Source: Patescibacteria group bacterium
Lineage (GTDB): Bacteria > Patescibacteriota > Minisyncoccia > UBA6257 > 1-14-0-10-40-38
NCBI GenBank assembly: GCA_038064975.1
Contig: JBBTRX010000002.1
Span: 128,880 to 192,879 of the forward strand
Direction: 5' to 3'
Length of the DNA: 64,000 nt
Shown: one piece after another, positions 5,641 through 62,765 of the stretch
How positions within the stretch are numbered: position 1 is the first letter of the stretch
How the letters are laid out: every line of letters begins with the position of its first letter
Notes under the pieces: generated by a model
The model's input: only the letters and a program-made list of their open reading frames with translations
Database searches by the model: none
What the model was told of the DNA's origin: nothing
Made by a program: the position numbers and the translations under genes

Positions 5641-5644
5641 AACG

Positions 5645-44115: not shown

Positions 44116-44171
44116 CCTGCCCGACTGAACGAGGTCAGTCGTTCGGGCGGGGAGCGTCCCTTTTGCTGAAT

Positions 44172-44554: not shown

Positions 44555-44629
44555 GGTGCCTGTAGCTTAATGGTAAAGCTCCGCTCTGTGGCAGCGGCGA
44601 CGTGGGTCCGATTCCCATCAGGCACCCCA
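44555..44629 (+). tRNA. tRNA-His (anticodon GTG) with G-1 and encoded CCA
   Basis: GGTGCCTGTAGCTTAATGGTAAAGCTCCGCTCTGTGGCAGCGGCGACGTGGGTCCGATTCCCATCAGGCACCCCA. Acceptor stem GTGCCTG/CAGGCAC with an extra 5' G. Confidence 0.8.
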
Positions 44630-46096: not shown

Positions 46097-48702
46097 ATTT
46101 TCAATTTTTCTCTAAAGACCTTATCAAATTCCTGCTTAGTGGTTGCTTCGTTATAAAACGGAAGCCCAATAAGTTTTAGCCTACCTCTCTCAAATAAGGT
46201 TCTAATCTCAAATTCCGATTCTATTTCCTTTAGAAAATCTTCTTTCCATTTATCCTCAATCAACCCTCTATTGCCTTTTGGTTCGACAAAGAGCTGGTAT
46301 GACAAGGCCTTCTTGCCACCCTTTTCTTTTAGAAACAGGACAAAATCCGGCTCGATTGCTTGCCCATCGCTAAAACGATAGATTTTAAACAGACGTTCGT
46401 TCCTCAATAAATAAACATCTCGGTATTTTTTGCGTAATTCATCCATAGCCTGTCGTACGAACTGGATCAAATACTTTTCTTCAGAAGTCCCATAATTTTC
46501 GTCATACATGTACCAGTCTTGCGTGCTCAAATCGAGCCTCAACTCATCATTCAAGGTTTCGCTCATTGCCTTACCAAATTCAGCATCCTCACCTCTTATT
46601 AAGAATTCTAAAGTTTTTGTTTTGGCTAATATCTTAACTTTTTCGCCATGAAATTCTTTAGTTCCAATATATTCTTTATTACCTGCCTGAATTTTTTCTG
46701 CTAGCTCCTTCAAGACGTTTAGGGCAATATCAAATTTGTCGTAATTAGTTAGAGCATCCAGTCTACCGTTTTTTGCATACACTTCAATTTCAACTAATCC
46801 AGTAAAGTCTTTTGACGTAATAAATTCATCAATGGATTTCAAGTTTGGGAAAAAGAAACGCAAACTTACAAAACGATAAAAATCAATCTTATCTGCGGCT
46901 TTTCTTAAAATATGTTTTTCAATGTTATTTAGTTTGATCGTTTTCTTCTTAAGTTCCTCGGTTATGAGTGAGTCGGATTGATCGTCAAAAACACCGGATT
47001 CGGAAGATTGCCCACTTTTTATTTTATGCTTAAAAAGCGTATCTTGAATTATATCTTTTAAATTCTTTACGCTGGAATAATCTTTTTTTATCTGTTTATT
47101 AAGAAAAATTAGGCCGTCATTCCAAAAAGGTGTTTTAGTAATGTCATTCTTTATGGAAACAGTCTTATTTATTCGATTGTCCGGCGTAATACCAATGTTA
47201 ACTAATTCATTCCGCAATTCGGCAATGTATCGAGAATCGGTCAGGCTGTGATAATGTAACTCTTCTAAGACTCGCAATTCACTATTTAAATCCTTGTCAT
47301 ATTTACGTTTGTCTTTCTCTTCTTGAGCCTCCGTTGAAAACGGGAAATATCTTGCGCCTCGGCCTATGAGTTGTGCTTCAGATATGGTTATACTTCCGGC
47401 CTTACCGTATTTAGCGTCCCTTGTTTCGTAAAGTCGTACGATGTCAAACAAATTCAAAACATCCCAACCCTCGTTGAGCATATTCGTTGTAAAAATAGCT
47501 CTGGTTTCGTTGTTGTAGTCTTCTAAGGTATTTACCGTGATCTGTTTTGCTTCGCTGTCGGCTTTGCTGTTTATGATTAAGCATTTTTCCTTAGCAAAAT
47601 CTTCCTGAATTTCTTTTATTAAATGTGTTGGACTAATTTTGTTGGCTTTAAAAAAATCAACGGCTTGTTTCATTATTCCTCCTACATTACTTCTCTGTAT
47701 TCTAACCATATCTTCGGAATTTAAACCCTTGATCATCTTGTAAAATTCCTGTTCAAATTCTTCAGAATCCTTTATTTGTCTAGACTTGAACAAGATCACC
47801 GGCTTGAGCTGAATTTTGTATTTCTCGGCCACTTTGCGGCGATACTGGCTCAATATCACGGCCTGCAAAGCCCTGCTTCGTACTTCTAAATCAGATTGTA
47901 GCAACTGCACATCTTTAGAGTAACCATCCTCCCTAAAGCTTTTTAAAGCATATTGATAGATGATTTTATCGGCATATTTTTTAGCTACGGCCGGATGGCT
48001 AAGCTCGATGGTCGCCGTATATTCGAGTAGTATATTTTGGCTATTAGCTTTGAAAATTCTATCTACTGTTCTTTCCCAGCTAGTCGCTTCTTCTTGTTCT
48101 TCTTTATCTAATTTTGACTTTGTTAGAGTATTTATATGGTGCGCCTCATCCGATAAAAAAACTACTTTCAGATTTTTGAAATCTTCATATGTGATTGAAT
48201 TTTCCTGCGGTGTATTTAATTTACTGTGCAAGCCTTGAATAGTCGTAAAAAGTATATTTATGTTGTCTGTGTTTGTGGCTTCAAAATTCTCAACGTCCTT
48301 AATCTCAATTTCTCTATCGTAAAAAGTAATTTTTTCAGCAAAAAGATATTTACTAGAGGCCTTATCCAAAAAATTACTTTTGGTTTTTTGTATTATATTC
48401 GTACTGTTCACAAAAAAGATAAAATTTCGATAACCTATGGAATATGAATATAAAATGTCAGCTGCCATTAAAAGGGTTTTGCCGCTACCAGTTGCCATAT
48501 GAAAAAGCAGATGAGCTGGAGCTTTCCGGCCTTCATAGGTAGCTAAATAATACCGAAAACGGGCTATAGCTTCTTTTTGATATTCCCGTATGGAGAATTT
48601 CGGATTCAGATTCTTTGAAACAAAATCAGGCACGTCTTTCGCAATGACCTTTTGTTTGGAAAGAATATTTAACTCATCTACTAGCTTGATACTAGTTTCC
48701 AT
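46093..48702 (-). CDS. res: Type III restriction enzyme Res subunit (SF2 helicase-nuclease)
   Basis: Helicase motif I MATGSGKT and motif II LSDEAHH. 869 aa, immediately downstream of the DPPY methyltransferase, overlapping it by 11 nt. Confidence 0.75.
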   Translation of the reverse strand: METSIKLVDELNILSKQKVIAKDVPDFVSKNLNPKFSIREYQKEAIARFRYYLATYEGRKAPAHLLFHMATGSGKTLLMAADILYSYSIGYRNFIFFVNSTNIIQKTKSNFLDKASSKYLFAEKITFYDREIEIKDVENFEATNTDNINILFTTIQGLHSKLNTPQENSITYEDFKNLKVVFLSDEAHHINTLTKSKLDKEEQEEATSWERTVDRIFKANSQNILLEYTATIELSHPAVAKKYADKIIYQYALKSFREDGYSKDVQLLQSDLEVRSRALQAVILSQYRRKVAEKYKIQLKPVILFKSRQIKDSEEFEQEFYKMIKGLNSEDMVRIQRSNVGGIMKQAVDFFKANKISPTHLIKEIQEDFAKEKCLIINSKADSEAKQITVNTLEDYNNETRAIFTTNMLNEGWDVLNLFDIVRLYETRDAKYGKAGSITISEAQLIGRGARYFPFSTEAQEEKDKRKYDKDLNSELRVLEELHYHSLTDSRYIAELRNELVNIGITPDNRINKTVSIKNDITKTPFWNDGLIFLNKQIKKDYSSVKNLKDIIQDTLFKHKIKSGQSSESGVFDDQSDSLITEELKKKTIKLNNIEKHILRKAADKIDFYRFVSLRFFFPNLKSIDEFITSKDFTGLVEIEVYAKNGRLDALTNYDKFDIALNVLKELAEKIQAGNKEYIGTKEFHGEKVKILAKTKTLEFLIRGEDAEFGKAMSETLNDELRLDLSTQDWYMYDENYGTSEEKYLIQFVRQAMDELRKKYRDVYLLRNERLFKIYRFSDGQAIEPDFVLFLKEKGGKKALSYQLFVEPKGNRGLIEDKWKEDFLKEIESEFEIRTLFERGRLKLIGLPFYNEATTKQEFDKVFREKLKI

Positions 48703-50392
48703 AGAACGCTTTGTTTATTTTCTTTTTTTCTGCGGGAACTTTATATGTAGCGTCTTCCATTTCGCTATAGTTCACATATAGATGGTTTTTATCCAAACTT
48801 TCAATCAATATCTGCTTCTGATCTTTTAACTCAAGCTCGCCGAATTTCTTTTCATCGAATTTATTTAGGTCTATTTCGTATCTGAAAAATGCCTCCATTT
48901 GCATTTTTTTATAGATATTCAATAACTCTTTGCTCGTCTTACCTCCTCTAATTGCCTGCTCATATTCTTCATTCCATTTCTTAAGTTCCATATAAACGAA
49001 CGATCCGCCGCCTTTCCAATGAACTGCTTTAGAAATTCCGGCCTGATCGCCCTTAACCACTTCTTTTAGGCGTGCAACACTGCCATTATCACCATAATCC
49101 AGTTGCTCGATGCCAATATATTGCCTACCCATTTTATGGGCTACGGCGGCTGTCGTACCACTACCTAAGTGGTAATCTAAAACAATATCTCCCTCATCGG
49201 TCGCCGATTTTATAATTCTCTCCAATAAATTTTCTGGTTTTTGCCCACTAAAATCCTTGATTCTTTCTTTCGCAGTAGCGGCTTGTTGAAATGAAATTAT
49301 ATCACCCCAAACATCACCTATGGCCTTCCCTCTCTCAATAACTTCGTCCAAATAAATCTTTTCGCCCCTTCCGTCAAAATACATTCTTCCAGTTTTCTCA
49401 TCTTTTTTATTAAATCTCGCGAGATATTTTTCGCTATGTTCAGTTTTTACTTTATTAAACTTAAGTGATTTATTATTTTTTGAATAAAACAATATTGAAT
49501 CATGTCCTCTAATCCAATTATTGGCAATTGTTTTATATCCTGACAAAACTGAAATATCCCAAATTATTTCTCTTTGGAAATTCTCTTTGCCGAAAATATC
49601 GTCCATTAAAACCTTACAATAGTGAACCTCATTGTAATCTAATTGAATATAAATACTTCCATCATCTCTTAATAATTGTCGTGCGACCTCTAACCTATTT
49701 TTCATGAAAGTCAGCCAAGTGGAATGATTGAAGCTATCATTGTAATTAAATCCATCCCCGTTGCCGGTATTGTATGGCGGATCAATGTATATGAGTTTAA
49801 CTTCACCTCTATACTTCTTTTTTAGCGAGTGTAAGGCCAAAAGATTATTACCTTTTATTATTAGATTATCCTGCTCGGTTATCCGTTCAATTTCATGTTC
49901 TCCTGTTTTGTCTATTTTCTTTATATTTGTTAACACTTTTGGTTCAAATAGCCGATCAATTTCGTCTGGCGCAAGAATTTCATTATAAAAAATTTCATTT
50001 CGTTTTGAATCTTCTTTGTCTTGCCCGCCCTCCAAAACACAATCTTTATATGGCCAAGCTAAAACCACTTTGCCGCTGTCCTTCAGATAATCATCATTCT
50101 CAACCAATCCAATATGATTTTTAAAAGCAGTAAAAGAATTCGGTAAAAATTCTTTGTTGTTTATGAATCTTACAAATTTATCCTGATTAAAAACAAAAAC
50201 TGCCTTAGTATTTATTTTGCTCTCTGTAAAAAAATGCTCTTTGGTTAGACCATTATTCAGTAATAATTCTAAGAGTTCTTTATCCTGCTTTATCGCCAAT
50301 TCAGTGATCTTGTTCTTTAAGATTTTTCCTTCAGCAAACAATCGTTCGTCTTTTTTTAAAATTTTAGCTAAATCGTTGAATAAATTTTGCAT
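48692..50392 (-). CDS. mod: Type III R-M Mod subunit (N6-adenine/N4-cytosine beta-class DNA methyltransferase)
   Basis: Catalytic IYIDPPYN before the SAM motif DYHLGSGTTAAVA (beta-class motif order). 566 aa. Confidence 0.8.
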   Translation of the reverse strand: MQNLFNDLAKILKKDERLFAEGKILKNKITELAIKQDKELLELLLNNGLTKEHFFTESKINTKAVFVFNQDKFVRFINNKEFLPNSFTAFKNHIGLVENDDYLKDSGKVVLAWPYKDCVLEGGQDKEDSKRNEIFYNEILAPDEIDRLFEPKVLTNIKKIDKTGEHEIERITEQDNLIIKGNNLLALHSLKKKYRGEVKLIYIDPPYNTGNGDGFNYNDSFNHSTWLTFMKNRLEVARQLLRDDGSIYIQLDYNEVHYCKVLMDDIFGKENFQREIIWDISVLSGYKTIANNWIRGHDSILFYSKNNKSLKFNKVKTEHSEKYLARFNKKDEKTGRMYFDGRGEKIYLDEVIERGKAIGDVWGDIISFQQAATAKERIKDFSGQKPENLLERIIKSATDEGDIVLDYHLGSGTTAAVAHKMGRQYIGIEQLDYGDNGSVARLKEVVKGDQAGISKAVHWKGGGSFVYMELKKWNEEYEQAIRGGKTSKELLNIYKKMQMEAFFRYEIDLNKFDEKKFGELELKDQKQILIESLDKNHLYVNYSEMEDATYKVPAEKKKINKAFYGN

Positions 50393-50393
50393 A

Positions 50394-50600
50394 TTATTTG
50401 GTTTGAGTTTTATTTAAAAACTGCTCAAATTCTGCCTGATCAATTCTAAACTCCTTACCAATCTTATGCGCCTTCAGCTTGCCCGATCTTATATTTCGAT
50501 AAATGGTTACTACGTCTAACTTGAGAATTGTGGCTAACTCCTTAGCTGTGTAAAACCTTTCTTGCTTCATACTCTTATGATACTGGACTATTGTATACAT
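50394..50600 (-). CDS. helix-turn-helix DNA-binding protein (excisionase/MerR-like)
   Basis: 68 aa with YTAKELATILKLDVVTIYRNIRSGKL, matching the HTH_17/Xis signature. Confidence 0.6.
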   Translation of the reverse strand: MYTIVQYHKSMKQERFYTAKELATILKLDVVTIYRNIRSGKLKAHKIGKEFRIDQAEFEQFLNKTQTK

Positions 50601-50616: not shown

Positions 50617-51732
50617 CTAATCTATTTCTGGCTTATAGGGCTTAAATCTTTGGAGCGCCTGCTTAATTTCTTTAATATAGCCATGACAGGATTTAAGAGA
50701 GATTCGCCTATTTAACGTCTTTAGCTTCGAACTAATCCTATCCCACTCTCTTGTGCTTGCTCTCTCCTCGATAATCCTTCTTAATCCTTTCGCGCCGCCT
50801 TCGTCCTTACAGAATATCTTTAGAGTGGCGAGCTTCATAGCCTCGCCAATTTTCATTTTTCGGTTTTTTCTCAATATGCTCCTCAATATGCCCTGTGGGC
50901 TCTCGTCTAAAGTGAAGATAAAAAAGTTGGGTTCAATATATGTTTCGAAATAGTTAAGCAATATTTTCCGACATACTTCTTCCTTAAAAATGTCTGCGAA
51001 GGTTGGATTTATACCGAAACCAAGCTGTTTTAAAACGCTGTTCATTTTTGTTTTTTCACATAAGCGAACTTCCACGCGCATTACCTCTGGCTTTTTCTTT
51101 TGTTGTATAAAATCGAGCAAGCTCGCTTGCTGTATTTTTTGATCGCTACTATAGGCCTTCTTCTCGCTCTTTTCTAAATCTTTAATTTTGTCATAGAAGG
51201 TTAAGGCGTGTGATGTAGCATAGAATTGTACTCCGTGGCCGCCATTCTTAAAATCCTTATAATCCATCTCCATTTTCTCGGTAAGATTTATCTTTGTAAA
51301 ATCCCTTATAATCCCCATCGTAGGATAACCGCCAGTTATGCGTATGTTTTTTGCTGGATGAAAAGACATAGCACTCGCATATTTTAAAAACTCTTTTTCT
51401 GTGCGAACCCCCATTTCGGAAAGCGATTTCTTTAAAACATCAAGCTCATCCCCGAAATTCGCTTCACTTACTTCTTGTAAGTTGTTGCCGAGAAGGATTG
51501 TCTGCGCCGAAAATTGAATTTTAAGATGCTCTCCTCTGCCAAGTCGATCTATGAGCGTTAATTGTGGCCGATAGATGAGAGCTTTCTTTTCCGCCGCCGT
51601 GGCATTGTTGGCGTATAACCGATAGATGCTACCTCCGTATAGGTTCGGCTTTGAGCCAATCAAATGAAACCGATCTTTTTTTAAGATAGTGAATTGGCTT
51701 TTCGGGATGTTTAAAATCACGGTGTCTAGCAT
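50617..51732 (-). CDS. hypothetical protein, possible replication initiation protein of the island
   Basis: 371-aa basic protein between the HTH gene and SpoVG. The Rep assignment is a weak guess from size and context only. Confidence 0.3.
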   Translation of the reverse strand: MLDTVILNIPKSQFTILKKDRFHLIGSKPNLYGGSIYRLYANNATAAEKKALIYRPQLTLIDRLGRGEHLKIQFSAQTILLGNNLQEVSEANFGDELDVLKKSLSEMGVRTEKEFLKYASAMSFHPAKNIRITGGYPTMGIIRDFTKINLTEKMEMDYKDFKNGGHGVQFYATSHALTFYDKIKDLEKSEKKAYSSDQKIQQASLLDFIQQKKKPEVMRVEVRLCEKTKMNSVLKQLGFGINPTFADIFKEEVCRKILLNYFETYIEPNFFIFTLDESPQGILRSILRKNRKMKIGEAMKLATLKIFCKDEGGAKGLRRIIEERASTREWDRISSKLKTLNRRISLKSCHGYIKEIKQALQRFKPYKPEID

Positions 51733-51758: not shown

Positions 51759-52019
51759 CTAGATGAATATCTCTCGTGCTTTGTCGGTAATAGCCTCTTC
51801 AATGGCCTTACCCAGATCACGGTTTATGGGGTGGTAAATGTTTATGTCTTTATCGCTCACCTTCTTCGTGGGATAGGTTATGCGGTATCCTGTGCCGTCC
51901 AATCGGCTATAAATGCCCATAGAGCCTAGATAAAGGCAGTTATCGAGCACTACGCTCGCAAAGCCAATAAGGCCTTCTTTGGGCTTAATAGGGATGATAT
52001 TAATCTCGGTTATTTTCAT
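51759..52019 (-). CDS. spoVG: SpoVG family protein
   Basis: MKITEINIIPIKPKEGLIGFASVVLDNCLYLGSMGIYSRLDG...ITYPTKK...NIYHPINRDLGKAIEEAI aligns with the SpoVG consensus. Confidence 0.7.
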   Translation of the reverse strand: MKITEINIIPIKPKEGLIGFASVVLDNCLYLGSMGIYSRLDGTGYRITYPTKKVSDKDINIYHPINRDLGKAIEEAITDKAREIFI

Positions 52020-52179
52020 AGAGGTGAGGGTTTTGTTTTTTATCCATCTCTAAAAGCCAGCCAAAAGCGCCGAGCAAATCCTGCTTGGCTTCAAAGGCTT
52101 CTTGCTCGGAAAGTTCTCTGCCGGATAGCTTTTCAAGCAATGCCTTTTCGTCTTTTTTGGATGCAAAAAAATCTGGCAT
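52000..52179 (-). CDS. small hypothetical protein (59 aa)
   Basis: Manual translation gives MPDFFASKKDEKALLEKLSGRELSEQEAFEAKQDLLGAFGWLLEMDKKQNPHLYENNRD. It overlaps the SpoVG start by 20 nt and is below the ORF-track cutoff. Confidence 0.3.
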   Translation of the reverse strand: MPDFFASKKDEKALLEKLSGRELSEQEAFEAKQDLLGAFGWLLEMDKKQNPHLYENNRD

Positions 52180-52226
52180 TAGAGCCAGTCTATTCTTTAC
52201 TTAATTTAAGTTGCCTTAAAAAAGAC

Positions 52227-53405
52227 TTAAGTCTTCCCTTTATATTTTTGATTAAAAATAACAGAGCGTTTTTTTACCTCCATCACGTCTCTTAGTCCTG
52301 TCTCACGAATTATTTTGCTATTTAATTGATAAGCGGCATTTTCGAATCTTTTTTCATTTGGTTCTTGATTGGGCTCATATTCTTCTGCAATTTCAGAGTA
52401 GAACCACTCTCTAAAGGCATCATCCGGATTTTTAAAAGCTATTTTTAATAGTTCATATTGATTACTATGATTTCTTAACATAACTTTTACTGACCCAACA
52501 AACAGCAGAGATTTGATAGGATCAAACTTTAATTGAGGGATTATCTCTTGCTTTGGAAGAAATAGTTTGCTCACGAGAGAAGAGTAGTCATTCTTTTCGG
52601 CCTCGCTAAGAAAGGTTTCTTTGATTGTTATATTAGCTTTAGCATTTTTTAAATCTTTCGATGACAAACTATTCGGATTCTTATCCGAATCAACAACCCA
52701 AAAATAGTCCAATTTTATAAATCCTTCATACTCCAATGCTAATACAGTATGGATGAATTGATATTCATTGTTGAAATGAAAATCCATAATCTTACCTTTA
52801 TCAATAATAAAATCATCTCCATACTTTTTATATAGGTCCAATAAGCCACTAAGCATGGATTTCTTCATCTCTTTATAAAGAACATAATTTTTAGTTTCTG
52901 ATTTCAACTTATCTTCCATAAAAAGCTTTATATAGCCGTTTAGGTATTTTTCTATTTTCTTTTCAGTTTTCTTGTCTAGGGCAGTCTCAAACTCAATAAA
53001 TTCGAAGATTCTTTCGAAATGCCTTGTTAAAACACGATCGGCAAAATCAATTATAGTAAACCTATCTTCCAGAATATTCTTAAAGAATTTTACACTCCCG
53101 GCTTCAGGATTTTTCTCAATATACTCTTGCAGCTCCTTAAAATTCGCAGGATTATATTTCTCATAAATATCCCTATGAAATTTGCCGTTGAAAGTGAAAT
53201 CAAGTTGCTTAGCGATCCTGCCTAGCCAAACGTAAGTCGTAGCGTAGTCAAAATTTGGTGGAAGGAGATAGTAGGCGTTTGAAACGGCTTTCTTTGCTGC
53301 TTGTTGGCCAAGCAACAAGTTTTTTAGAATATATAGGTATTCTTCACGCCAATAGGGAAGTTTTTTAACATCGCTTACTTCTTTCATTACATCTTTAGGA
53401 AGCAT
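52227..53405 (-). CDS. hypothetical protein (392 aa), partner of AAA+ ATPase
   Basis: Lys/Glu-rich, predicted helical, no motifs. Its start lies 12 nt after the ATPase stop on the same strand. Confidence 0.45.
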   Translation of the reverse strand: MLPKDVMKEVSDVKKLPYWREEYLYILKNLLLGQQAAKKAVSNAYYLLPPNFDYATTYVWLGRIAKQLDFTFNGKFHRDIYEKYNPANFKELQEYIEKNPEAGSVKFFKNILEDRFTIIDFADRVLTRHFERIFEFIEFETALDKKTEKKIEKYLNGYIKLFMEDKLKSETKNYVLYKEMKKSMLSGLLDLYKKYGDDFIIDKGKIMDFHFNNEYQFIHTVLALEYEGFIKLDYFWVVDSDKNPNSLSSKDLKNAKANITIKETFLSEAEKNDYSSLVSKLFLPKQEIIPQLKFDPIKSLLFVGSVKVMLRNHSNQYELLKIAFKNPDDAFREWFYSEIAEEYEPNQEPNEKRFENAAYQLNSKIIRETGLRDVMEVKKRSVIFNQKYKGKT

Positions 53406-53417
53406 AAAATATTCGAT

Positions 53418-54857
53418 TTACATCGTTAAGAAATATGGAATAGGTACCTTAACAATATTCAATCTTTCGTGAAGTTCTAACTCATCAGAGCTAATAACCA
53501 CACCAAAATCACAACTCACCATTTCCATTGTTTTCACGACTTGGCTAACATTTTTTGAACCCGAACCTATCTCAACTGCTATTCTTAGTTTGTCTGGAAT
53601 TTGAAAGATAAAATCGGCCGTTTCTGCCGCGCTGTGATGAGTAAGAATGCCTACGCCAGTGGTGAGAAACTCGCGATAGAAATGGAGGCCAACAACATCT
53701 TCTAGAAGTATGCCCCTCTTTGCAGAGAAAGCTCCTTTTATTCCGGCAACGCTAACTAAAGCCATTCGTATTGCCGGACTCATAAAGAGATATTTAGCTG
53801 GTTTTCTAGCTGTAGCTGCGCCTGAGCCATGAGCTGGCACACGAATGATTAACTCGGCCTTCTCTAATGCCTCTAGTACATTTACAAGGGTTACATTAGT
53901 AAATCCTAGAATAGAGCTAACCTTGTTAATGCTGAGTGAATCAGCATCTGCCATTACAAAGAGTAGTCTCTTGATAGAGCTTAGGGTTTTTATATCAAAT
54001 TTCCCTAATCCTGTAAGATCCTTTGTTATCATTCGATCAAGTAATTGAGAAATGGCTTCGTAGGCTTGAGGTTGAGTCATTGTTTTTATGGCGAATGGGA
54101 GAGTTCCAACCGTAAGAAATTTATCTACATCATTACTATCTATTTTTTTCCAGTATTCATTTATTTTTGGTTCAATCTTCTTAAGTTCTTCAAAAACATC
54201 CTTAGCAGTCTTTTTGCTATATAATGCATTTTTAATCTCTTGCTTCAATTGAGGTGTCGGAAATACATTACTTTCGATCATCTTAAATTCTCCAAAGCTT
54301 AATGGATACAATTTTTCTATGACCGCTCGTCTGGCAATATCAGGATTTGTTTGTAGAAGTACGGCGGATGAGCCGGTACAGACAATGAAAATATTTCTAG
54401 CTCTATCATGCAAAGCTTTCAGGTAAAGAGCCCAATTTACATCAAGCTGAATTTCGTCTATTAGAAGACAAACAGGATGTTTAACTTGTTCTAGGGGACT
54501 ACCCAGTATTTTTTCATAAGCTTCCAATACTTCCCGCAATGAAATCCCAATCGTAGACATAACGTCATCAATGGAGATATAAATGATATGATTGGCAATC
54601 AGTTGCTCTCTAAATTTATAGTAGATTTGTGCGAGTATGGTTGTTTTGCCAACGCCACGAAGTCCAGGCATAACGACCCAGCGTTGGTCTCTACCGCCAG
54701 ATAAAAATCCCTTTATTAGTTTTTCTATTCTAAAAAACGCATAACGTTTCGGATAGGAAAAATTAGGCGTTGGCCTTGTGTAAGGGAGTAATCGGTCTGA
54801 GTTTTGTTGGATTTGATTCTTGACGTATGCTATAGCTTTTTCGTCCATATTATTCAC
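53418..54857 (-). CDS. AAA+ superfamily ATPase (COG1373-like, DUF4143-type C-terminal domain)
   Basis: Walker A VMPGLRGVGKTT, Walker B CLLIDEIQ and sensor TGSS. 479 aa. Confidence 0.7.
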   Translation of the reverse strand: MNNMDEKAIAYVKNQIQQNSDRLLPYTRPTPNFSYPKRYAFFRIEKLIKGFLSGGRDQRWVVMPGLRGVGKTTILAQIYYKFREQLIANHIIYISIDDVMSTIGISLREVLEAYEKILGSPLEQVKHPVCLLIDEIQLDVNWALYLKALHDRARNIFIVCTGSSAVLLQTNPDIARRAVIEKLYPLSFGEFKMIESNVFPTPQLKQEIKNALYSKKTAKDVFEELKKIEPKINEYWKKIDSNDVDKFLTVGTLPFAIKTMTQPQAYEAISQLLDRMITKDLTGLGKFDIKTLSSIKRLLFVMADADSLSINKVSSILGFTNVTLVNVLEALEKAELIIRVPAHGSGAATARKPAKYLFMSPAIRMALVSVAGIKGAFSAKRGILLEDVVGLHFYREFLTTGVGILTHHSAAETADFIFQIPDKLRIAVEIGSGSKNVSQVVKTMEMVSCDFGVVISSDELELHERLNIVKVPIPYFLTM

Positions 54858-55103
54858 AAGGGTGTTTATTTCACTTTAATATCTCTTGTATATCATACTA
54901 TATAAGTAATTACAAGCACCTGTTTTGCATAGCCTTTATATAACACTTTGATCAGTTTTTCTTATTCGAAACACTTAAAGTTAGACACTTTTTAGCCCTA
55001 TTAAGGTGTGAATAAGATTTATTCTTGGCTTCAATAGTAAGGGAAATAGCACCTCGGGTGACGTAACTTCACTATTGAACGAACGTTCACTATACATAAG
55101 AGT

Positions 55104-55220
55104 ATGCCCAACGATTACTTAAAAGTGATTGTCGGATTTTATCGGAAATTTAAGCGTATGCCTAGCTATGCGGAATTAAAGAAAATATGTTCCGAGACGA
55201 AACTAAAAGGAAAAGACTAG
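55104..55220 (+). pseudogene. LexA-like N-terminal fragment (38 codons)
   Basis: MPNDYLKVIVGFYRKFKRMPSYAELKKICSETKLKGKD resembles the LexA N-terminal winged-helix (xxLKxIxxFYxKxGxxPSYxEL) but stops after 38 aa. Confidence 0.25.
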
Positions 55221-55246
55221 GCTTTCCAATGTTTAGTGGAGAGTAG

Positions 55247-55334
55247 ACGTATGTGAGACTTCAAGAAAACTCAAATCCTCGCTTATTTTCTTCCAATCTA
55301 CGGTTCTAAACACATCCAGTAAGGCCGCCAATCT
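55247..55334. repeat. about 85-bp direct repeat, copy A (downstream end of RHS cassette)
   Basis: ACTTCAAGAAAACTCAAATCCTCGCTTATTTTCTTCCAATCTACGGTTCTAAACACATCCAGTAAGGC matches 62204-62274 with 1 mismatch. Confidence 0.55.
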
Positions 55335-55387
55335 ATTACTGCGCCACTAGGAGTGGTATAAAGTTTGGTAGTGTAATCACCATTCAT
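55298..55387 (-). pseudogene. orphan copy of RHS C-terminal tail coding fragment (MNGDYTTKLYTTPSGAVIDW...) fused to repeat copy A
   Basis: Minus-strand mini-ORF MNGDYTTKLYTTPSGAVIDWRPYWMCLEP. Its first 20 aa are identical to residues near the RHS C-terminus, and the end reads into the 85-bp repeat. Confidence 0.4.
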
Positions 55388-55405
55388 TACTATATTTTAA
55401 TATCA

Positions 55406-55678
55406 CTATTTCTTTCTAAAATTCCTAAATGCAATTTTTAAAACAAATAAGATGAGTATAACTAAGGCAATCATTGAAACAATACTTTCAGTCATGAGTA
55501 TTTTTGCTGATGATTCAAAAATAGTTTCTATTATTAAATCTATTGTTTTAAGAATAAAACTTATTCCAGCAACGATACCAAGCCACAAATAATCTTTATC
55601 TTGATATTTTTTCCAAGCCCAATAACTAGCAACAATGAGGATTAATGGGACTATATATCTTAATATTTCTATGCTCAT
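55406..55678 (-). CDS. small 3-TM membrane protein, immunity-like (paralog 2)
   Basis: 90 aa sharing YWAWKKYQDKDYLWLG with the adjacent paralog (YAWSKKQGKDFFWLG). Located immediately downstream of the RHS toxin. Confidence 0.5.
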   Translation of the reverse strand: MSIEILRYIVPLILIVASYWAWKKYQDKDYLWLGIVAGISFILKTIDLIIETIFESSAKILMTESIVSMIALVILILFVLKIAFRNFRKK

Positions 55679-55690
55679 AAAATTTAATAA

Positions 55691-55759
55691 TTAGTTTGTA
55701 GATCCTGAGATAATATTACCCCACCAATCTATAACTGCCCCGGTTAGTGATGATTCGGT
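55691..55759 (-). pseudogene. orphan RHS C-terminal tail fragment (TESSLTGAVIDWWGNIISGSTN*) directly after paralog-1 stop
   Basis: In frame after the TAA of 55760-56029, it encodes ...GAVIDWWGNIISGSTN, matching the RHS C-terminus ...GAVIDWWGNIISGPKN. The underlying motif is CCCCACCAATCTAT(A/C)ACTGCCCC. Confidence 0.4.
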
Positions 55760-56029
55760 TTATTTTTTTAAATATTCCAAAAATATTCTTATTATAAAGA
55801 AAAAAGTTATTAGCAAAAGAATTGAAGATATTAAATATATAGGCAATTCATATCCTGCAGAAAAATTAGAAAAGGTACGTAATATATATTTAGTCACATT
55901 TAGGATGATAAAACCTATACCTACCCAACCAAGCCAAAAAAAATCTTTTCCTTGTTTTTTTGACCATGCGTAAAAACAAATACTCGTTCCTACTAAATAA
56001 AAAATTATATAGAAAATTATTGAATTCAT
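55760..56029 (-). CDS. small 3-TM membrane protein, immunity-like (paralog 1)
   Basis: 89 aa with three hydrophobic helices, 12 nt downstream of the RHS stop. Confidence 0.5.
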   Translation of the reverse strand: MNSIIFYIIFYLVGTSICFYAWSKKQGKDFFWLGWVGIGFIILNVTKYILRTFSNFSAGYELPIYLISSILLLITFFFIIRIFLEYLKK

Positions 56030-56041
56030 AAATATTAAAGA

Positions 56042-59000
56042 TTAATTTTTTGGTCCTGAAATGATGTTGCCCCACCAATCTATCACTGCCCCACTAGGAG
56101 TGGTATAAAGTTTAGTAGTGTAATCGCCGTTCATCATTATATTTTGTTGATTTGTATTATTTTGAGCGTTCCCTTGAGGAGTTTGAGTTCCTTCCTTAAA
56201 ATTTTGTATTCCCTCATTAAATTTCTTATAATCTTCAATCTGTTGAGCTATTGCTGGGCAAGCAACGCTACACACAGCGCCTATAATCTTCCATAAAGGC
56301 CACTTTGGATCAAATTTTGGAGGTTCATTGTTAAAAATTTTTGCCTGTTCAGGACCCCTCACAAGTCGACTCTGTTCAAATGGTCTCTGACTCAATCCAT
56401 CATTGTTTCGAAGTAGTGCCGCAGTACCGACCACAAGCGCACCGACACCCACAACGGCTACGCCTATCAAGAATGCTTGAGGTGCTACAAAGAAGACTGG
56501 CAATGCGAAAGGAATGGCAATTTCACCATCTGGGTCAATTAGATTTATCGGATTATTTTTTACGTAAGAGTATGAATTTAAGCTCTGGGGATCGCTAAGC
56601 ACGCTCTCTAAAGATTGGCCATATCTATCTTCAAAGTTTATATCACCGATCGCAAGATACGATGGATCTTCACTTAAAAACCTTCCCCAATTAGTATTCA
56701 AATACCTCGCTTTCGCATACGTATAGTCTAGAGCATCTGCATCGTATTCGTGTCCAGTATACTTCCTTTTTTCAATCGTTGTACCAACATCATTCTTGAG
56801 TGATCCAAACGCAGTGTACCCCACTTCTTCCGTAATGTTAGCAGAGTCATCGGTTACTAACGATGTTGAACGGAGATGATCGGAGCTATTCCATAGGATA
56901 GTAGGATCTCCTGTCCCTATGACCACCGTAGCTACCGGTATGCCGTTTACAAAGATATGTTCTGTGGTTGTGGCACTTCCTTCTTCGTTAAAGTAGATAG
57001 ATGGGTATGTGGTCGTGGCAAGGTTTGTTACGTGGGAATAAACCCTTTGGCCGCTTGTATCATATCCATACGTTGCATATTTTGTTTGTTGCCCAGGTCC
57101 TCCGAAGGATTGAGAGGAGAATCCTCCAGTTTGTTGAGATGGGAGTTTGATTTTTACTAATCTATTATTCCAATCCCAGGTGTGGGTAAGATTGCCGGTA
57201 CGATTTACGAGATTACCGTTTTTGTCGTAGGTCAAGGTTTCTGCGCCTACCCTCGTAGCCGCATGTGGGTTTGCAAAATTAGCTGTAGTTGTCCCTTGAT
57301 ACCAATACACGCCTTCGGGAGAAGTGAGGATATTACCAACGGGAGTGTAGGTGAAAATTTCAGAAAAGATGTTTGTAGACGAAGCGTTTACGGTTGAGCT
57401 TGCGAGACGATAGAGACTGTCGTATTCATAATCGGTCACACGATTCGGCAATGTTGCCGTGTCAGAAAAGACAGCGATTTTTGTAATATTCCCAACAGCA
57501 TCATAGGTATAGAGAAATTGCTGGAGCGTATTACTTCCATCATCTATGATTTTCCTTTTCAGACGATAGAGTTCATTCTCATCATAGGCATTCTCTATCG
57601 TTGTGCCATTCGCGTTTGTTTGGAACGTCACGTCCCCAGTCGGCGCATAGTCAAAATCAGAAACAATCGTAGTAGTCGCTACCCCACTTTCTTTCCAGTA
57701 CACCGCTTCAGGATGCCCTGCATTGTTGTATTCGTACGTAATCAAGGCATCATTCGGATTCTTGATCGTGAGCGGGTTACCAAGATAGTCGTAGGTATAA
57801 TCCGTAAGATATACATTACCGTCTATTATTTTGGTTTCCTTACCGATATTCCCCGCATAGTCATAGCGGTTGTTCAAAACCATCTTTCCCGCCGTAATAG
57901 TTGTTGTCGTTGCGATACAGAGGCGACCCACACCTTGGGAGCAGGCGTCGTAAGTGTATTCTGCTTCCAAACCCGACGTAAGCGATGCGTTTTCGCTTGT
58001 TATTCTGTTTAATGTGTCATATGCGTACGTTACGGTAGAAAAATCTGGTTTCTTTTTTTCCGTAAGATTACCGGCAAAGTCATACGCGTACGTTGTTGTT
58101 CCAAAATAAATATCGGATAGTTCATGCATATCTTCGGCAAAGGTTCTCCTCCCAAGCATGTCATATTCAAAATTGCGGACATTACCTTCAGCATCGATGA
58201 TTTTTATGAGGTTACCGAGAGTATCGTATTCATAGCGAGTGACATACGGAGAGGTTGTGGCATATTCATCCACACGATTCAGACGCCCAAAAGCATCGCG
58301 ACTAAAAACTTTTTTATTATTGTTTGAATCGGTAGTAGTGGCGTACCAGTTGTCGTATGTTGTTGCCGTATCACCAAACACCTGATCAACGTTCACTACT
58401 CTATCCAATGCATCGTATGTATATGAAGCATACAGCGAAGCAGTTGTTGTCGCAGATGTTTTATTTACGCCAGAACTGAAATACGGCAATGACTCTTTTT
58501 CTACACGACCTTGTTCGTCATATACCGTGTCTTGTACCGCATAGATTGTGCCACCATTATCCTCTGCGCGAGAGCGGGTCTGGATAGCACGCCCGAAGCC
58601 GTCAAAGTATGTTTTTATATCAGTTGAAAGAGCGGGTAAAAGATTGTTCGTTTCTTGAACAGCATATTGATTTGCTGTGTCGGTATAGGTAATAGTCTTT
58701 ATCGTTACGAGTGCACCTGTAAGAGGGTCGGGAGATTTTTGGGTCTTTATGCGATCCAGTGAATCATAGACGGTTTCATATATTTCTCCATTGGGAGTAA
58801 TAGTCTGCGTAGGTTGCCCAGAAGAATAGTCATACAAGCGTTCCGTCTCGTGGCCTAAAGCATTTGTTGTCGTTTCTGGATAAAGATTTAATGAGTCATA
58901 TACGTACGTTGTTTCGTTGTAGTTTGGATCACGATCGGAGAGCATAAGTCCAAAACTGTTATACACATGCGTAGTAGAGGCATAGGTTGTGCCTTCTATC

Positions 59001-62000
59001 AAAAATTCTTTTTTAGTTGGATTGCCCACTGATACTTCGCCAAACGATAAATCGTCGTATGTTATCTTTTGATCTGCAACAGTAGTATTGGCATAATCTT
59101 TAACGGTTTGTTGTGATAATAACTTTATATAATCCGTACTACTTTCTGCATAATCATAGTCGGTGGTACGAACATCATCCCCTATGTCGCTAAAGGTTAA
59201 TGGATCAGATGCGGTTACTTCACCCCATTCTTTTTCTTGAGTAAGATTTCCTGTTGTAGTTGCAAATGAAAAAGTTTTTGCCACGTCTCTATGCGTTCCA
59301 TTCCCGTCATAAGTCTCTGTGATAATTTGCGATGGATATACTAAAAAAGCAGTGTCAATGGAAGTTGTTGCTGCATTCCATTTCGTAGTTGTTCGTGTCA
59401 TCAAATTTCCATTTGAATCCAAGCGATCTATGCGATAAGCTTTTCCGATTTTTGCATGATGATCTAAATCTTCATACAACGTTGTACTCGCGGTGTCACC
59501 TTGATGGAAATAGGTTATCTCCTCAGTTCCATCTGGTTTGATCTTGGTAACGGTTTCAAAACCTGCAAACCTGCGATCGAAAGAGTCTTTGAAGAAATAA
59601 TGTCCACCTGCATAACTATATGTTGTTGTACTGACCGTACCCGTCACTGAGTCTGTCTCTCCCACCGCTTGAATTGTCTGAGTAGTAAAGGGAAGTTCTG
59701 GATTTAAGAGATTACCCCCTGCGTCTTTGTATTGAGATGAAGCCTCATATGAGGTTGTTATGACGCCACCCGTAGGAAGAGTAATTTTTGAAAGTAAGTC
59801 TGGGGTGTTGCCAGTATTGAAGAAAATATCAGCAACACAATCAGGATTGCAAACGCTGTGAATAATATCTAGAAGTCCATCGCCATTAATATCACCAACC
59901 TGGCGAACAATAGTATCGCTTGATATTCCAACTTGTAAATCTCCTGCATTAAGATAGTGATCCCATCGATGAAGAAATATTTTACCAATACTTGAAAACA
60001 TATCGGGAAGATCATCGCCGTTCATATCAGCAATAAACGTTCCCGTGGGTCCGGTTGTAAAATCTTCAAACATATTCGAATCCCCTGATCGTAAATTTGT
60101 AAACCCTGAATCATATGTGAAGCCAGTAGAAGAAGTCACTACTGAAGACGTTGCTCCTTGGTTGATATATATTTTTGCATCATATGAACCACCAAATGTT
60201 TTAAGCGCCCTAAAAATATCAGTCAATCCATCGTGGTTCATATCAACTGCACGAATACCAAGTTGATCCGGTACTTCAGATGGCATCGTAAAGAAAGAAA
60301 AATCGATTCCATTATTTCGATCTATTTCAAATGGGAGAGGACCAATAGTACGAAGTCGATCGAAAAGTCCATCGCCATTTATATCTCCTACCATGGGACG
60401 ATCAAGACTATCAGGATCAAGCTTCGGCACAGCACCAGTCCAGGAAGAGTCATACTGCCAATTTGTACCACTATTTATATGAACTTCTGACGTAAATGGG
60501 GGTGATACAGGGCCATAGACGTAATCACTTTCTGCATCACCATTAATATCCGCAACAATCGTACCATCTGCGTTACAAAAACTTCCTGCATCCAATCGCG
60601 TGCAAATTCGAATAAGCACAACACCACCTTGTTTGTGTGGTATTTGCCAACTTGTGGATGTAGCAAATGTATTATCGTGTTGATTAATCCAAACATATTC
60701 TTTGTCAATGGTTGATGGATTCTCAATACGAGTTGATTGCAAGACATCAGCATAACCATCACCATCTACATCGGTAACAATGACGCCATTAGTATAATCA
60801 AGACTTCTAATCGTTATATCTGCTGTGCTTGAAGCAAACGAGAAATTACTCGAGGTATATTGAAAATTTGTAGTAAGTTCAATAAGAGTTCCAAAAGGAT
60901 CGCCCTGATCTCGGATAGAACTGACACGTGAACGCCCTGTAAGAGAATTGTCATCGTAAGTAACGACATAGCGTCGCACTAAAACACCATTTTCTCTAAT
61001 ATCGATATTATTTAAGCGGTTCCTTGTTTCAACTTTAAATCCAGCAAAATAAGACTTTTGATCATCCTGTCTTCCAACCCAACCAAAACTGATTGAAAAG
61101 ATTGGAGTAGTGGTTGCTGGAGCGTCTGTGTACGCATATTCAATTTTAGATGGATATATTTGACCTTGATTAGCGGTATAGGTATATAAAATCTCATTAC
61201 CGTTTGCGTCTTTTATTCGATCAAGCATCCATTTGTATCCGGTTGAAGTTGCGTAGGGAGAAGCAATGCGCGTAGTTGAAGCACTCCCAAAAAAATACAT
61301 TACACCATCCTTAGTCTCGACCTTCCAATGATCATCTTCCGTTGAAGAAGTGGTGTATGTATATTTATTAAAAGCACCAGTATCTGTTTTTGCTATGAAT
61401 TGATCATTTGAAATATACGCGAGAGATCCATCAAGAGATGATAAGAAACTCTCGTATGGAGTATCATACATTCGTTCGTTTCCATATTTATTCTCACGAA
61501 TAATATAAGGAACATCGAGATTCCATCCATATCCAATATAGGTACCATCTGAACGATCCTGTGAGTTATATACTATCGCAAGATCAGGAGTAAAATCATT
61601 GCGACCAGGAGGTAGTTGAATTGGATAGCGGTATACATATGCGCCCGAAGAAAGATTAGCCTGTGGTTTTATTTGCCGTATTGTGTTTATGGGCTGAACC
61701 GTTGAGTATGGAATGTCTGAGGCAGATTTTGTAGTCCCGCGACTATCTCCCGAATTACTACTTCCGCCAGAAGACCTTTCTTCAACGCTTGGCATTGCCG
61801 CAGTTCGAGAAGAAACGTTTGCCACATTGCCGGATATATCTGAATCAGTACTAATCGTATCTGTAGTATTACTATTATCTAAAGACGGCACATCAATAGA
61901 AAACGCCGATTTTTGAATCGGCGCCTGTATTACTTCGGGAGATGCATCAATAATTTGACCAAATATCTGAGAAGGAAAAACCAAAGAAAAAGCGGTTATT

Positions 62001-62065: not shown

Positions 62066-62195
62066 TATCGCAAACCCAATTCCCCTCTGTCAATTAAGAT
62101 TGTCAATCCTCAAAACAATAAAGAGTGTTAAGGGTATGGTGAAATAATCCTTTATTCTAAATTAAGTCATAGGTTTAGCGGAGAATAGATACATG

Positions 62196-62278
62196 TGGAA
62201 CTTCAAGAAAATTCAAATCCTCGCTTATTTTCTTCCAATCTACGGTTCTAAACACATCCAGTAAGGCACCCACAGAAA
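62196..62278. repeat. about 85-bp direct repeat, copy B (upstream of RHS gene)
   Basis: Matches copy A. It lies about 140 nt upstream of the RHS start codon. Confidence 0.55.
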
Positions 62279-62394
62279 TAAAAACGACCTGGTTTATCCC
62301 GGTCATTTTTATTTCTATAGAGATGCTTAATGGCGTGTCGGATCGCGGGCCGCAGACCCCGAAGAGGGGTCGAAGGTTTCGAGGTCAGTAGGCC

Positions 62395-62413
62395 GAGAGG
62401 CGATTCCCATCAG
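62395..62413 (+). repeat. 19-nt duplicate of tRNA-His 3' end (putative attR of island)
   Basis: CGATTCCCATCAGGCACCC is identical to 44607-44625 within tRNA-His. Confidence 0.55.
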
Positions 62414-62444
62414 GCACCCAATAAACAACCCCCTACCTATATGG

Positions 62445-62765
62445 TTAGGGGGTTTTAATTTTGTCGTGGCAATACTCACGGAGACTTCCATAGGTTCTGA
62501 TTTCTTTCGGAATCATGATACGGAGCTCACAGAGGGCGCAGACAATAATGTCGTAAGGAGCAATGGTGACGGTGTGGCGAAAAATGAGGGCGCTATAAGG
62601 CTTCTTTTCGTTTGGACAGTTTTCATGAACCCCTAGCGGATTCTTGAGATCGGCGTAGTCATTGAGTAACGGTCCCTGCATTTCGTCGTTGCGACTAAAT
62701 ATTCTTCGTTCTTGGGGCGGCACAAGCATATCGCCCCATGCAGTTAGCATGATGGGTGTGAACAT
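62445..62765 (-). CDS. hypothetical protein
   Basis: 106-aa ORF just outside the island repeat, with moderate GC and no motifs. Confidence 0.3.
   Translation of the reverse strand: MFTPIMLTAWGDMLVPPQERRIFSRNDEMQGPLLNDYADLKNPLGVHENCPNEKKPYSALIFRHTVTIAPYDIIVCALCELRIMIPKEIRTYGSLREYCHDKIKTP

Follow-up and report, generated by a model that had tools for sequence, protein, structure and literature searches.

Among described systems, the ATPase gene considered here resembles PDC-S01, a single-gene candidate in which an ATPase is fused to a PD-(D/E)XK domain and which has been surveyed in the literature as a candidate defence system (PMC12988326). The PDC set originated from genes located inside BREX, DISARM and Type I R-M systems (bioRxiv 10.1101/2024.01.29.577857), and DUF4143/COG1373 has been classed within the PD-(D/E)XK superfamily (PMC3424549). 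In the sole published test that we found, a PDC-S01 representative different from the ATPase of this study failed to protect E. coli from phages T4, T5 and T7 (bioRxiv 10.1101/2024.09.26.614923), and no experiments tying PDC-S01 to defence were found in the literature. We examined a 64,000-nucleotide stretch of DNA (the window) from a Patescibacteria (CPR) genome, in which an ATPase gene of this type lies directly upstream of a gene for a 392-aa protein. The initial annotation had interpreted these two genes as a candidate two-gene defence module with the 392-aa protein as the effector. Our analyses indicated that the two genes are very probably independent units of a tRNA-His integrative element whose juxtaposition is specific to this locus.

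Much of the description on which the module had been based was correct. The ORF list confirmed two co-directional ORFs separated by 12 nt, a spacing that becomes 30 nt with the likelier start codons, which are an ATG at 54848 for the ATPase (476 aa, identical to NCBI protein P0006) and an ATG at 53387 for the 392-aa protein (386 aa, as in P0001; homologues start MKTV...). A transcription-signal scan detected no terminator-like hairpin between the two genes. A promoter scan was uninformative, with fewer matches than in shuffled sequence. The location in a mobile island adjoining a Type III R-M system was supported by a low GC content (0.33 to 0.39 versus ∼0.44 in the flanks), by Mod and Res genes with strong Pfam and PADLOC matches (MTase_III, 2e-180; REase_III, 2e-131) and by a serine recombinase gene at tRNA-His. 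The coordinates of these features are collected in Table 1.

Table 1. Features of the integrative element and its surroundings, in window coordinates
Feature	Coordinates	Strand	Basis and remarks
tRNA-His, integration site (proximal junction)	44556-44629	(+)	Abuts recombinase
Large serine recombinase	44618-46096	(-)	Resolvase + Recombinase + Zn_ribbon_recom (Pfam); PHROG integrase, 2.8e-66
Type III R-M, inner cargo slot	46093-50392	(-)	Mod 48692-50392; Res 46093-48702
HTH_17 excisionase-like predicted DNA-binding protein	50394-50600	(-)	Pfam HTH_17, 1.2e-13; PHROG excisionase families
371-aa core protein (U371)	50617-51732	(-)	23% identity, E = 5e-11, to homologue in related locus L001
SpoVG-family protein	51759-52019	(-)	Pfam SpoVG, 2.6e-10; core gene in part of the family
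Small ORF, 59 aa	52000-52179	(-)	69% identical to the equivalently placed 65-aa ORF of L001
Terminator-like hairpin	52173-52188	(-)	Directly 3' of the 392-aa gene; consensus match only
Multi-winged-helix predicted DNA-binding protein, 392 aa (ORF list)	52227-53405	(-)	AF2 model, Foldseek, synteny; first core-operon gene
AAA_14 ATPase - winged helix - DUF4143 (PD-(D/E)XK), PDC-S01 type; 479 aa, GTG start (ORF list)	53418-54857	(-)	Pfam, PADLOC; cargo
Distal element end, repeat D1-A	55231-55330	.	100-nt repeat, 90% identical to 62173-62272
Second distal-end motif copy, D1-B	62173-62272	.	Ends GCACCCA = tRNA-His 3' terminus
Displaced tRNA-His 3' end fragment	62401-62422	(+)	21/22 nt identical to 44609-44630

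The COG1373/DUF4143-like assignment of the ATPase was borne out by Pfam matches to AAA_14 (residues 58 to 191; E = 7e-24) and DUF4143 (residues 293 to 432; E = 8e-7). The protein also matched PADLOC profile PDLC04787 (PDC-S01) across most of its length, with residues 61 to 478 aligned on profile positions 30 to 407 of 412 (E = 2.4e-32), and five more PDC-S01 models were matched as well. An AAA+ ATPase and a PD-(D/E)XK-superfamily domain are fused in this single polypeptide, as in PDC-S01. The Walker A (VMPGLRGVGKTT) and Walker B (CLLIDEIQ) motifs reported in the initial annotation were both present, and these motifs and the C-terminal residues D412...E426-x-G-x-G-x-K432 were at least 95% conserved among 120 homologues, the conserved elements being GxxGxGKT, DE and D...ExGxGxK. 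In a word-index search, homologues at E ≤ 1e-10 numbered more than 1,151, and each was ∼475 aa long with AAA_14 and DUF4143 domains. This family is already catalogued as a candidate defence system (PADLOC PDC-S01), is very common and is unvalidated, and the window copy is a free-standing anti-phage candidate that the element carries as cargo. The protein is self-contained and consists, from the N to the C terminus, of an AAA+ (AAA_14) NTPase, a winged helix and a DUF4143 domain of the PD-(D/E)XK nuclease fold. The NTPase and winged-helix part may recognise foreign nucleic acid, and NTP-dependent activation would then license the C-terminal nuclease.

Six distinct neighbourhoods of close ATPase homologues (53 to 55% identity) were examined, and no conserved partner or common neighbour gene was present among them, as expected of a gene with no obligate partner. 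One neighbourhood adjoined a type II R-M system, two lay within or at the margin of serine-recombinase elements and one held the ATPase as a lone gene amid housekeeping genes. The gene 3' of the ATPase in locus L006 was considered as a diverged partner and was rejected, as there was no similarity. The recurrence of the ATPase beside serine-recombinase elements or their remnants (loci L007 to L010) and as a lone single-gene insertion amid housekeeping genes (L011 and L012) would also suit a mobile-DNA module with a selfish or maintenance function, such as an NTP-dependent nuclease acting in element competition, exclusion or addiction, and the failure of the tested PDC-S01 representative to protect against phage is consistent with such a function. 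However, one negative result with three coliphages in a foreign host carries little weight, and the origin of the PDC set within BREX, DISARM and Type I R-M systems, the survey of PDC-S01 as a candidate defence system and the presence of Abi and toxin-antitoxin cargo in the corresponding slot of related elements all argue against such a role, which we regard as unlikely.

The 392-aa protein presented a different picture. The reported absence of recognisable motifs was true at the sequence level, with no match in Pfam, NCBIfam, PADLOC or PHROGs. The word-index search detected 5 relatives of this protein compared to the more than 1,151 of the ATPase, while a profile search defined a family of 632 relatives composed of an N module and a C module. 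Searches for related loci yielded 3 from a genome collection and 41 from a metagenome scan. Across 43 distinct loci, the family gene was the first of a conserved operon in the order 392-aa family gene, small ORF, (SpoVG), 371-aa protein, HTH_17, inner cargo and large serine recombinase, and it was invariably co-oriented with, and directly upstream of, this core operon. Among the 23 loci with enough sequence, U371 was present downstream of the family gene in 19 and SpoVG in 8. HTH_17 was detected in 17 of 18 loci, and a recombinase was found in every locus with at least 8 kb of downstream sequence (n = 10). U371 gave no Pfam or PHROG match, a search of PDB with the 371-aa family found nothing, and a proposal that the 392-aa and 371-aa proteins are paralogues was rejected because no similarity was detected.

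The slot upstream of the 392-aa family genes contained varied cargo, comprising SocA_Panacea (five cases), DUF3800 (three), HEPN_AbiV (two), AbiTii, Dam with PDDEXK_11, Type III R-M and Type I R-M. This cargo was mostly divergent from the family gene, whereas the ATPase of the window lies upstream on the same strand as the 392-aa gene. The ATPase would occupy this slot, the outer of the two for cargo, with the core operon on one side and the distal attachment end on the other.

A first AF2 model of the 392-aa protein, built from 5 sequences, was poor (pLDDT 65), and no informative fold matches were obtained with it. A confident model from 37 sequences (pLDDT 88.9) superseded it and predicted a multi-winged-helix protein. 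The best Foldseek matches were the DNA-binding domains of ToxR (8b4d_B), PhoB (1qqi) and ArlR (9dlu), with a probability of 1.00 and target TM scores of 0.57 to 0.64, although the E-values for the whole-protein query were only 0.05 to 0.15. The DNA-binding domain of CtrA (BFVD) was also among the best matches, again with a probability of 1.00, and target TM scores across the top matches ranged from 0.48 to 0.64. The predicted secondary structure of the C-terminal part (E292-295, E300-303, E306-309, H315-323, H336-343, H351-369, E375-377 and E381-384) has the arrangement of the OmpR/PhoB fold, namely, an N-terminal beta-sheet, three helices and a C-terminal beta-hairpin wing. We place an OmpR/PhoB-type DNA-binding fold in the C-terminal domain (about residues 290 to 385) of the model, a placement that rests on secondary-structure topology because Foldseek gave no query coordinates. 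The N-terminal 280 residues had no significant structural match.

The 392-aa protein of the window had no match to Trans_reg_C, even with a threshold of E ≤ 10, and none was detected in any of 36 C-domain segments. One relative, P0259, passed the Pfam Trans_reg_C threshold in the C-terminal slot (27.3 bits versus a cut-off of 26.2; residues 465 to 539), and another, P0269, gave a weak match (E = 0.005). An hhalign comparison of the C-domain profile with P0259 was not significant. A search of PDB sequences with the C-terminal-domain profile returned nothing significant, and weak matches to I-CreI and NAMPT were judged to be spurious.

The proximal end of the element was clear and lay at the 3' terminus of tRNA-His. 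The neighbouring gene encodes all three domains of a large serine recombinase, with 79% DNA identity to the recombinase gene of L001, and its stop codon overlaps the 3' end of the tRNA gene. The same overlap was observed in three loci, these being the window, L001 (tRNA-His) and L003 (tRNA-Asn). At the distal side, D1-A holds a conserved ∼45-nt motif (CCAAT..AC.GTTCTAAACAC.TCCAGTAA.GC), and the elements of L001 and L005 share this core motif at their distal ends, which would place the ATPase inside the element. The distal boundary is complicated by the second copy of the end motif (D1-B) and by an RHS locus between D1-A and D1-B. D1-B is followed by a flank resembling that of L001, and the displaced tRNA-His fragment by a hairpin and a T-run. 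The two D1 copies and this third tRNA fragment suggested a composite history. The mobile unit would span 44.6 to 55.3 kb or 44.6 to 62.3 kb, and the empty site would consist of tRNA-His followed directly by CAGAAATAAAAACGACC. No direct repeats were found at the ends of L001 and L003, as is expected for serine recombinases. An Rfam search of the intergenic regions 54800-55450 and 61900-62600 returned nothing credible, and no conjugation or virion genes were seen in the element.

Overall, these analyses indicated that the 392-aa protein belongs to the backbone of the mobile element and is not an effector, and it is probably the regulator of the element. It would bind a control region located where the cargo slot meets the core operon, and may act there as a transcription regulator of the element or as an origin-binding protein. 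An alternative is that it is a regulator of the BrxR/CapW kind that governs any cargo placed upstream, including the ATPase, in which case the two genes would be linked without being a dedicated pair. The predicted DNA-binding fold and the constant position of the family gene next to a slot that holds diverse defence or toxin-antitoxin genes, which for the most part are divergently oriented, would be compatible with this role. The orientation of the family gene, however, always follows the core operon and not the cargo, and no shared operator is apparent in the window, where the ATPase lies upstream in the same orientation as the 392-aa gene. Furthermore, no family-level likeness to BrxR/CapW was found, with no WYL match in Pfam and no PADLOC match, and no binding sites or iterons were identified for the 392-aa protein. 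We consider control of the cargo in this manner to be rather improbable.

Co-occurrence, the check that the initial annotation had itself suggested, was examined from the side of each gene. Of the 20 other loci of the 392-aa family for which 1.5 kb or more of sequence upstream was available, none carried the ATPase there, and a 392-aa family gene was found in none of the six distinct neighbourhoods of ATPase homologues. The pair was not conserved together in these loci, an outcome that the initial annotation had itself named as refuting, and the proposed module was not upheld; the role of effector partner was likewise disfavoured by the DNA-binding fold of the 392-aa protein and its synteny with the element core. 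A dedicated two-gene anti-phage system, with the ATPase as sensor or motor and the 392-aa protein as a novel effector, would accord with the common strand, the short gap free of terminators, the shared low-GC island beside the R-M system and the lack of sequence-level annotation of the 392-aa protein, but is highly improbable given the failure of the genes to co-occur, the very unequal sizes of the two families, the affiliation of the 392-aa protein with the recombinase-element core and the presence of a nuclease-fold domain, the predicted effector, within the ATPase polypeptide itself.

The preferred interpretation is that of two independent units, an ATPase cargo gene and an element backbone gene, which are neighbours at this locus. 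As the ATPase happens to be inserted co-directionally in this element, read-through may yield a common transcript of both genes, from which functional pairing does not follow. The close spacing and the lack of an intervening terminator at this locus would permit co-expression.

With respect to significance, the ATPase adds a further copy to a very common, catalogued candidate family, and the new two-gene system proposed for this locus in all probability does not exist. There is a caution here on method, in that tight spacing within a defence island is weak evidence of partnership when one of the genes belongs to the backbone of an element. A by-product of the analysis, of greater use, is a recognisable conserved backbone shared by small elements of CPR bacteria that have a serine recombinase and cargo slots in which defence and toxin-antitoxin genes gather. 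This backbone offers a marker for defence cargo in genomes said to be defence-poor, together with a collection of large serine recombinases that are specific for tRNA genes and have identifiable attachment sequences. The family of elements may not have been described before. We tentatively suggest, with somewhat less than even confidence, that the 392-aa protein marks an undescribed family of small tRNA-targeting integrative elements of CPR/Patescibacteria, with a core of multi-winged-helix protein, small ORF, (SpoVG), 371-aa protein, HTH_17 and large serine recombinase, that two cargo slots serve to shuttle R-M, Abi, toxin-antitoxin and PDC-type defence genes in these reduced genomes and that the winged-helix protein represents a novel type of regulator or origin binder of the element, located at the outer cargo hotspot.

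The window ATPase shared with PDC-S01 the full-length HMM match, the AAA+ and PD-(D/E)XK folds in a single polypeptide, the Walker A/B and nuclease-like residues, the solitary occurrence and the defence or mobile context; no structural difference was detected, and the window copy is distinguished by its occurrence in Patescibacteria as cargo of a serine-recombinase element. The 392-aa protein resembled OmpR/PhoB-type proteins (Trans_reg_C; PhoB, ToxR, ArlR and CtrA) in the predicted topology of its C-terminal ∼100 residues. Unlike these proteins, it had no sequence-level match and no receiver domain, carried an N-terminal module of ∼280 residues with a further winged-helix-like unit and no known relatives, and belonged to a mobile element, not to a two-component system. 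With BrxR/CapW-type regulators it had in common the character of a winged-helix DNA-binding protein beside many unrelated defence sets, but it lacked a WYL domain and a PADLOC match and was linked to the core operon of the element and not to the defence genes. The element as a whole was similar to known tRNA-targeting elements of large serine recombinases with HTH_17 (excisionase/RDF-like) proteins and defence cargo, as it had the same recombinase domains, a small adjoining HTH_17 protein, an insertion site at the 3' end of a tRNA gene and variable R-M, Abi or toxin-antitoxin cargo. It differed from them in a core set (multi-winged-helix protein, small ORF, SpoVG and 371-aa protein) without annotated counterparts and in the distribution of its family, which is seemingly restricted to metagenomic contigs of the CPR/Patescibacteria type.

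The genes for the ATPase (479 aa from a GTG start) and for the 392-aa protein were located by ORF calling on the same strand and 12 nt apart, as the initial annotation had described, and the Walker motifs it had reported, VMPGLRGVGKTT and CLLIDEIQ, were both found in the ATPase translation. As the identical database proteins, both recorded for a Patescibacteria group bacterium, begin later (P0006, identical to the ATPase, 476 aa, at an ATG slightly downstream at 54848; P0001, identical to the 392-aa protein, 386 aa, at an ATG at 53387) and the closest homologues of the 392-aa protein share the starting methionine of P0001, the gap is probably 30 nt. A search of this gap for a terminator-like hairpin found none, and one was present 3' of the 392-aa gene. 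Cotranscription of the two genes at this locus is plausible.

The first contexts to be inspected were those of four close and three distant members of the 392-aa family. In these seven contexts, the family gene was followed by small ORFs and often also by SpoVG, next by a large protein, which either lacked annotation or was 731 aa long and weakly matched Toprim_2, and then by HTH_17 and a large serine recombinase. Upstream, the content differed each time and consisted of HEPN_AbiV, SocA_Panacea, DUF3800 with Dam and PDDEXK_11, or Type I R-M genes. Co-occurrence was examined in 3 genome and 41 metagenome loci (43 distinct loci after removal of near-identical ones), in which ORFs were called and searched with purpose-built HMMs for the ATPase, the two family modules, SpoVG, the 371-aa protein, HTH_17, and the recombinase. 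Among the 23 loci with at least 1.5 kb of downstream sequence, a 371-aa homologue was detected downstream of the family gene in 19 and SpoVG in 8. HTH_17 was present in 17 of 18 loci with at least 3 kb downstream, and a serine recombinase on the same strand in all 10 with at least 8 kb. An ATPase gene lay upstream in only 1 of the 21 loci with at least 1.5 kb of upstream sequence, and this was the window itself. When 69 ORFs upstream of the family gene in 23 loci were scanned, the genes detected were SocA_Panacea (n = 5), DUF3800 (n = 3), HEPN_AbiV (n = 2), AbiTii, a Dam methyltransferase, PDDEXK_11, Type III Mod/Res, an IrrE-like peptidase, and ordinary chromosomal genes but no AAA_14. These results indicated that the 392-aa gene is part of an element backbone, syntenic with the core genes of a recombinase element, and that the slot upstream of it accommodates many interchangeable cargo genes, the ATPase among them.

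Four close homologues of the ATPase (53 to 55% identity) were examined in six distinct places, and no partner gene was common to these neighborhoods. The homologue adjoined a type II R-M pair in L006, was inside a serine-recombinase element in L007 and L008 and at the edge of another in L009 and L010, and was a lone gene with housekeeping genes on either side in L011 and L012. HMM searches of loci L006 to L012 detected no 392-aa-family gene in any of them; a 325-aa gene downstream in L006, considered as a diverged partner, proved to be unrelated to the 392-aa protein. In L007/L008 (6700-8177) and L009/L010, the homologues either neighbored relics of related elements, in the form of a 105-aa resolvase fragment and a 191-aa piece of a 371-aa-family protein, or adjoined a 585-aa serine recombinase, and hence the ATPase recurs as cargo of such elements. 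The initial annotation had proposed that the ATPase and the 392-aa protein may form a two-gene defense module and had itself named a lack of joint conservation as evidence against this. The pair was not conserved together elsewhere, and the module was therefore abandoned, while the assignment of the ATPase family and the defense-island context were retained.

The ATPase matched AAA_14 (E = 7e-24) and DUF4143 (E = 8e-7) in Pfam and six PADLOC models of the candidate defense system PDC-S01, the best (E = 2.4e-32) spanning nearly the whole profile. More than 1,151 proteins were recovered at E <= 1e-10 from Patescibacteria, Planctomycetota, and Deltaproteobacteria, among others, nearly all of ∼475 aa and sharing this domain pair. 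Alignment of 120 homologues revealed at least 95% conservation of Walker A, Walker B, a TGSS/RR region, and a C-terminal D412...E426-x-G-x-G-x-K432 pattern (P0006 numbering), the last of which is consistent with an intact nuclease-like site. [quoted passage not shown] The PDC set comprises candidates only, drawn from genes located within BREX, DISARM, and Type I R-M systems (bioRxiv 10.1101/2024.01.29.577857), and one PDC-S01 representative assayed in Escherichia coli was outside the four candidates protective against T4, T5, or T7 (bioRxiv 10.1101/2024.09.26.614923). Overall, no conserved part of a PDC-S01 protein is missing from the ATPase, which stands alone elsewhere and belongs to a known and catalogued but functionally unproven kind of candidate. 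Its AAA+ and winged-helix parts may carry out an NTP-dependent recognition, which would then activate its own PD-(D/E)XK domain on nucleic acid.

A word-index search with the 392-aa protein recovered no more than five relatives, each from a Patescibacteria-type source; a profile search of a representative library detected 632 at E <= 1e-3 and 280 at E <= 1e-10. Domain mapping resolved an N module (∼residues 1 to 260) and a better-conserved C module (∼residues 290 to 390; consensus FD..S.L......I.K.S.QY.LL.IIF.....W..SEI.E..D....KK.YNAAY..N.KIA..TGI.DF..TT..S..IN.KYL.), each of which was also found with other partners. AlphaFold prediction was poor with 5 sequences (pLDDT 65) and improved with 37 (pLDDT 88.9, pTM 0.70), and the predicted C-terminal part comprised three strands, three helices, and a hairpin. 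In a Foldseek search of the PDB, the query best matched the ToxR, PhoB, and ArlR DNA-binding domains (prob 1.00, target TM 0.57-0.64, 99-102 aligned columns, E = 0.05-0.15 with the whole protein as query), and the best match among viral models was a CtrA regulator. As query coordinates were not reported, length and topology were used to place the match in the C-terminal domain. The window protein had no sequence-level match to Trans_reg_C. Two relatives carried this domain, P0259 above the Pfam threshold (residues 465-539, following an N module at 136-436) and P0269 weakly (308-382), and thus the C-terminal slot of the family can take a canonical OmpR-type domain. On our reading of the secondary structure, the N module contains a second winged-helix-like unit (H177-195 ... 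E230-236/E256-261). The protein is thus modeled with confidence as a multi-winged-helix protein with an OmpR/PhoB-type fold, and it may bind DNA in the control region separating the cargo slot from the core operon, where it would act as a regulator or an origin binder.

Features of the island, with gene order as read on the minus strand
Feature	Position	Strand	Remark
tRNA-His 3'-end fragment	62401-62422		21/22 nt identical to 44609-44630
Distal-end motif	62230-62272
100-nt direct repeat	62173-62272
RHS locus	55325-62065		RHS toxin (2007 aa), small downstream ORFs, orphan core-end fragments
Small ORFs after RHS gene	55760-56029, 55406-55678
Orphan core-end fragments	55675-55741, 55325-55398
Distal-end motif	55288-55330
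100-nt direct repeat	55231-55330
ATPase	53418-54857	-
392-aa protein	52227-53405	-
Terminator-like hairpin	52173-52188
Conserved 59-aa ORF	52000-52179	-	69% identical to L001 counterpart
SpoVG homologue	51759-52019	-
371-aa protein	50617-51732	-	No family match
HTH_17 excisionase-like protein	50394-50600	-
Type III Mod	48692-50392	-
Type III Res	46093-48702	-
Large serine recombinase	44618-46096	-
tRNA-His	44556-44629		3' end overlapped by recombinase stop codon
Ribonucleotide reductase large subunit	41379-44258	-	C-terminal TSCPD domain

The GC content was 0.31-0.42 (mostly 0.33-0.39) from 44.6 to ∼56 kb, compared to ∼0.44 in the flanks. The SpoVG homologue and the 59-aa ORF are members of the mobile-element operon. 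The 371-aa core protein, also present in L001 (8402-9580) and ∼20 other loci, had no match in Pfam, PHROGs, or PDB sequences, and its invariant motifs include an N-terminal MxDT, YDK, and R.E..L. It may be a replication protein, as its conserved YDK ... R.EVRL pattern is reminiscent of Rep_trans-type initiators. The ribonucleotide reductase gene directly adjoins the tRNA-Phe/tRNA-His pair that is the insertion site. A perfect 20-nt copy of the tRNA-Phe 5' end (44096-44115 versus 44411-44430), 315 bp upstream of the tRNA-Phe gene, falls within the annotated 5' part of this ORF and may either represent a remnant of a tRNA or indicate an overextended ORF start.

The recombinase of the related element L001, with 79% DNA identity to that of the window, likewise ends inside tRNA-His, and that of L003 ends inside tRNA-Asn; L003 also carries a tyrosine integrase (Phage_integrase; 5185-6297) besides its large serine recombinase. 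A conserved ∼45-nt motif, CCAAT..AC.GTTCTAAACAC.TCCAGTAA.GCACCCA, whose end is the last bases of tRNA-His, was found at two sites in the window, ∼1.2 kb upstream of the family gene in L001, and at the contig end of L005. We read this motif as the putative distal attachment junction of a tRNA-His-targeting subgroup. With a distal end at 55.33 kb, the ATPase would lie on the stretch from the family gene to this end, and hence in the outer cargo slot, which contains two small unannotated genes in L001 and a SocA_Panacea gene and a 153-aa gene in L005.

The two motif sites of the window each lie in one copy of a 100-nt direct repeat (90% identical, 6,942 bp apart) that flanks the RHS locus, and an L001-like flank follows the 62.27-kb copy only. 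The RHS/Tc-toxin-like protein contains SpvB, TcdB_toxin_midN, RHS repeats, and an RHS core, and the locus is a typical toxin-tip/immunity array, in a CPR genome between two element ends. A third piece of the tRNA-His 3' end, located 17.8 kb away from the intact gene and followed by a hairpin and a T-run, is probably the displaced original 3' end of an older insertion. This composite history could have arisen by tandem or successive insertion at tRNA-His.

The two-gene finding as posed is of low to moderate interest; the by-product worth following is a conserved CPR element backbone with defense-cargo slots. A description of the core set was not found in the literature searched, which is weak evidence of novelty, and a paper on Patescibacteria genomic islands makes no mention of recombinases or of the core genes (PMC12455944). 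Compared to the tRNA-targeting serine-recombinase islands, the element is a variant of these.
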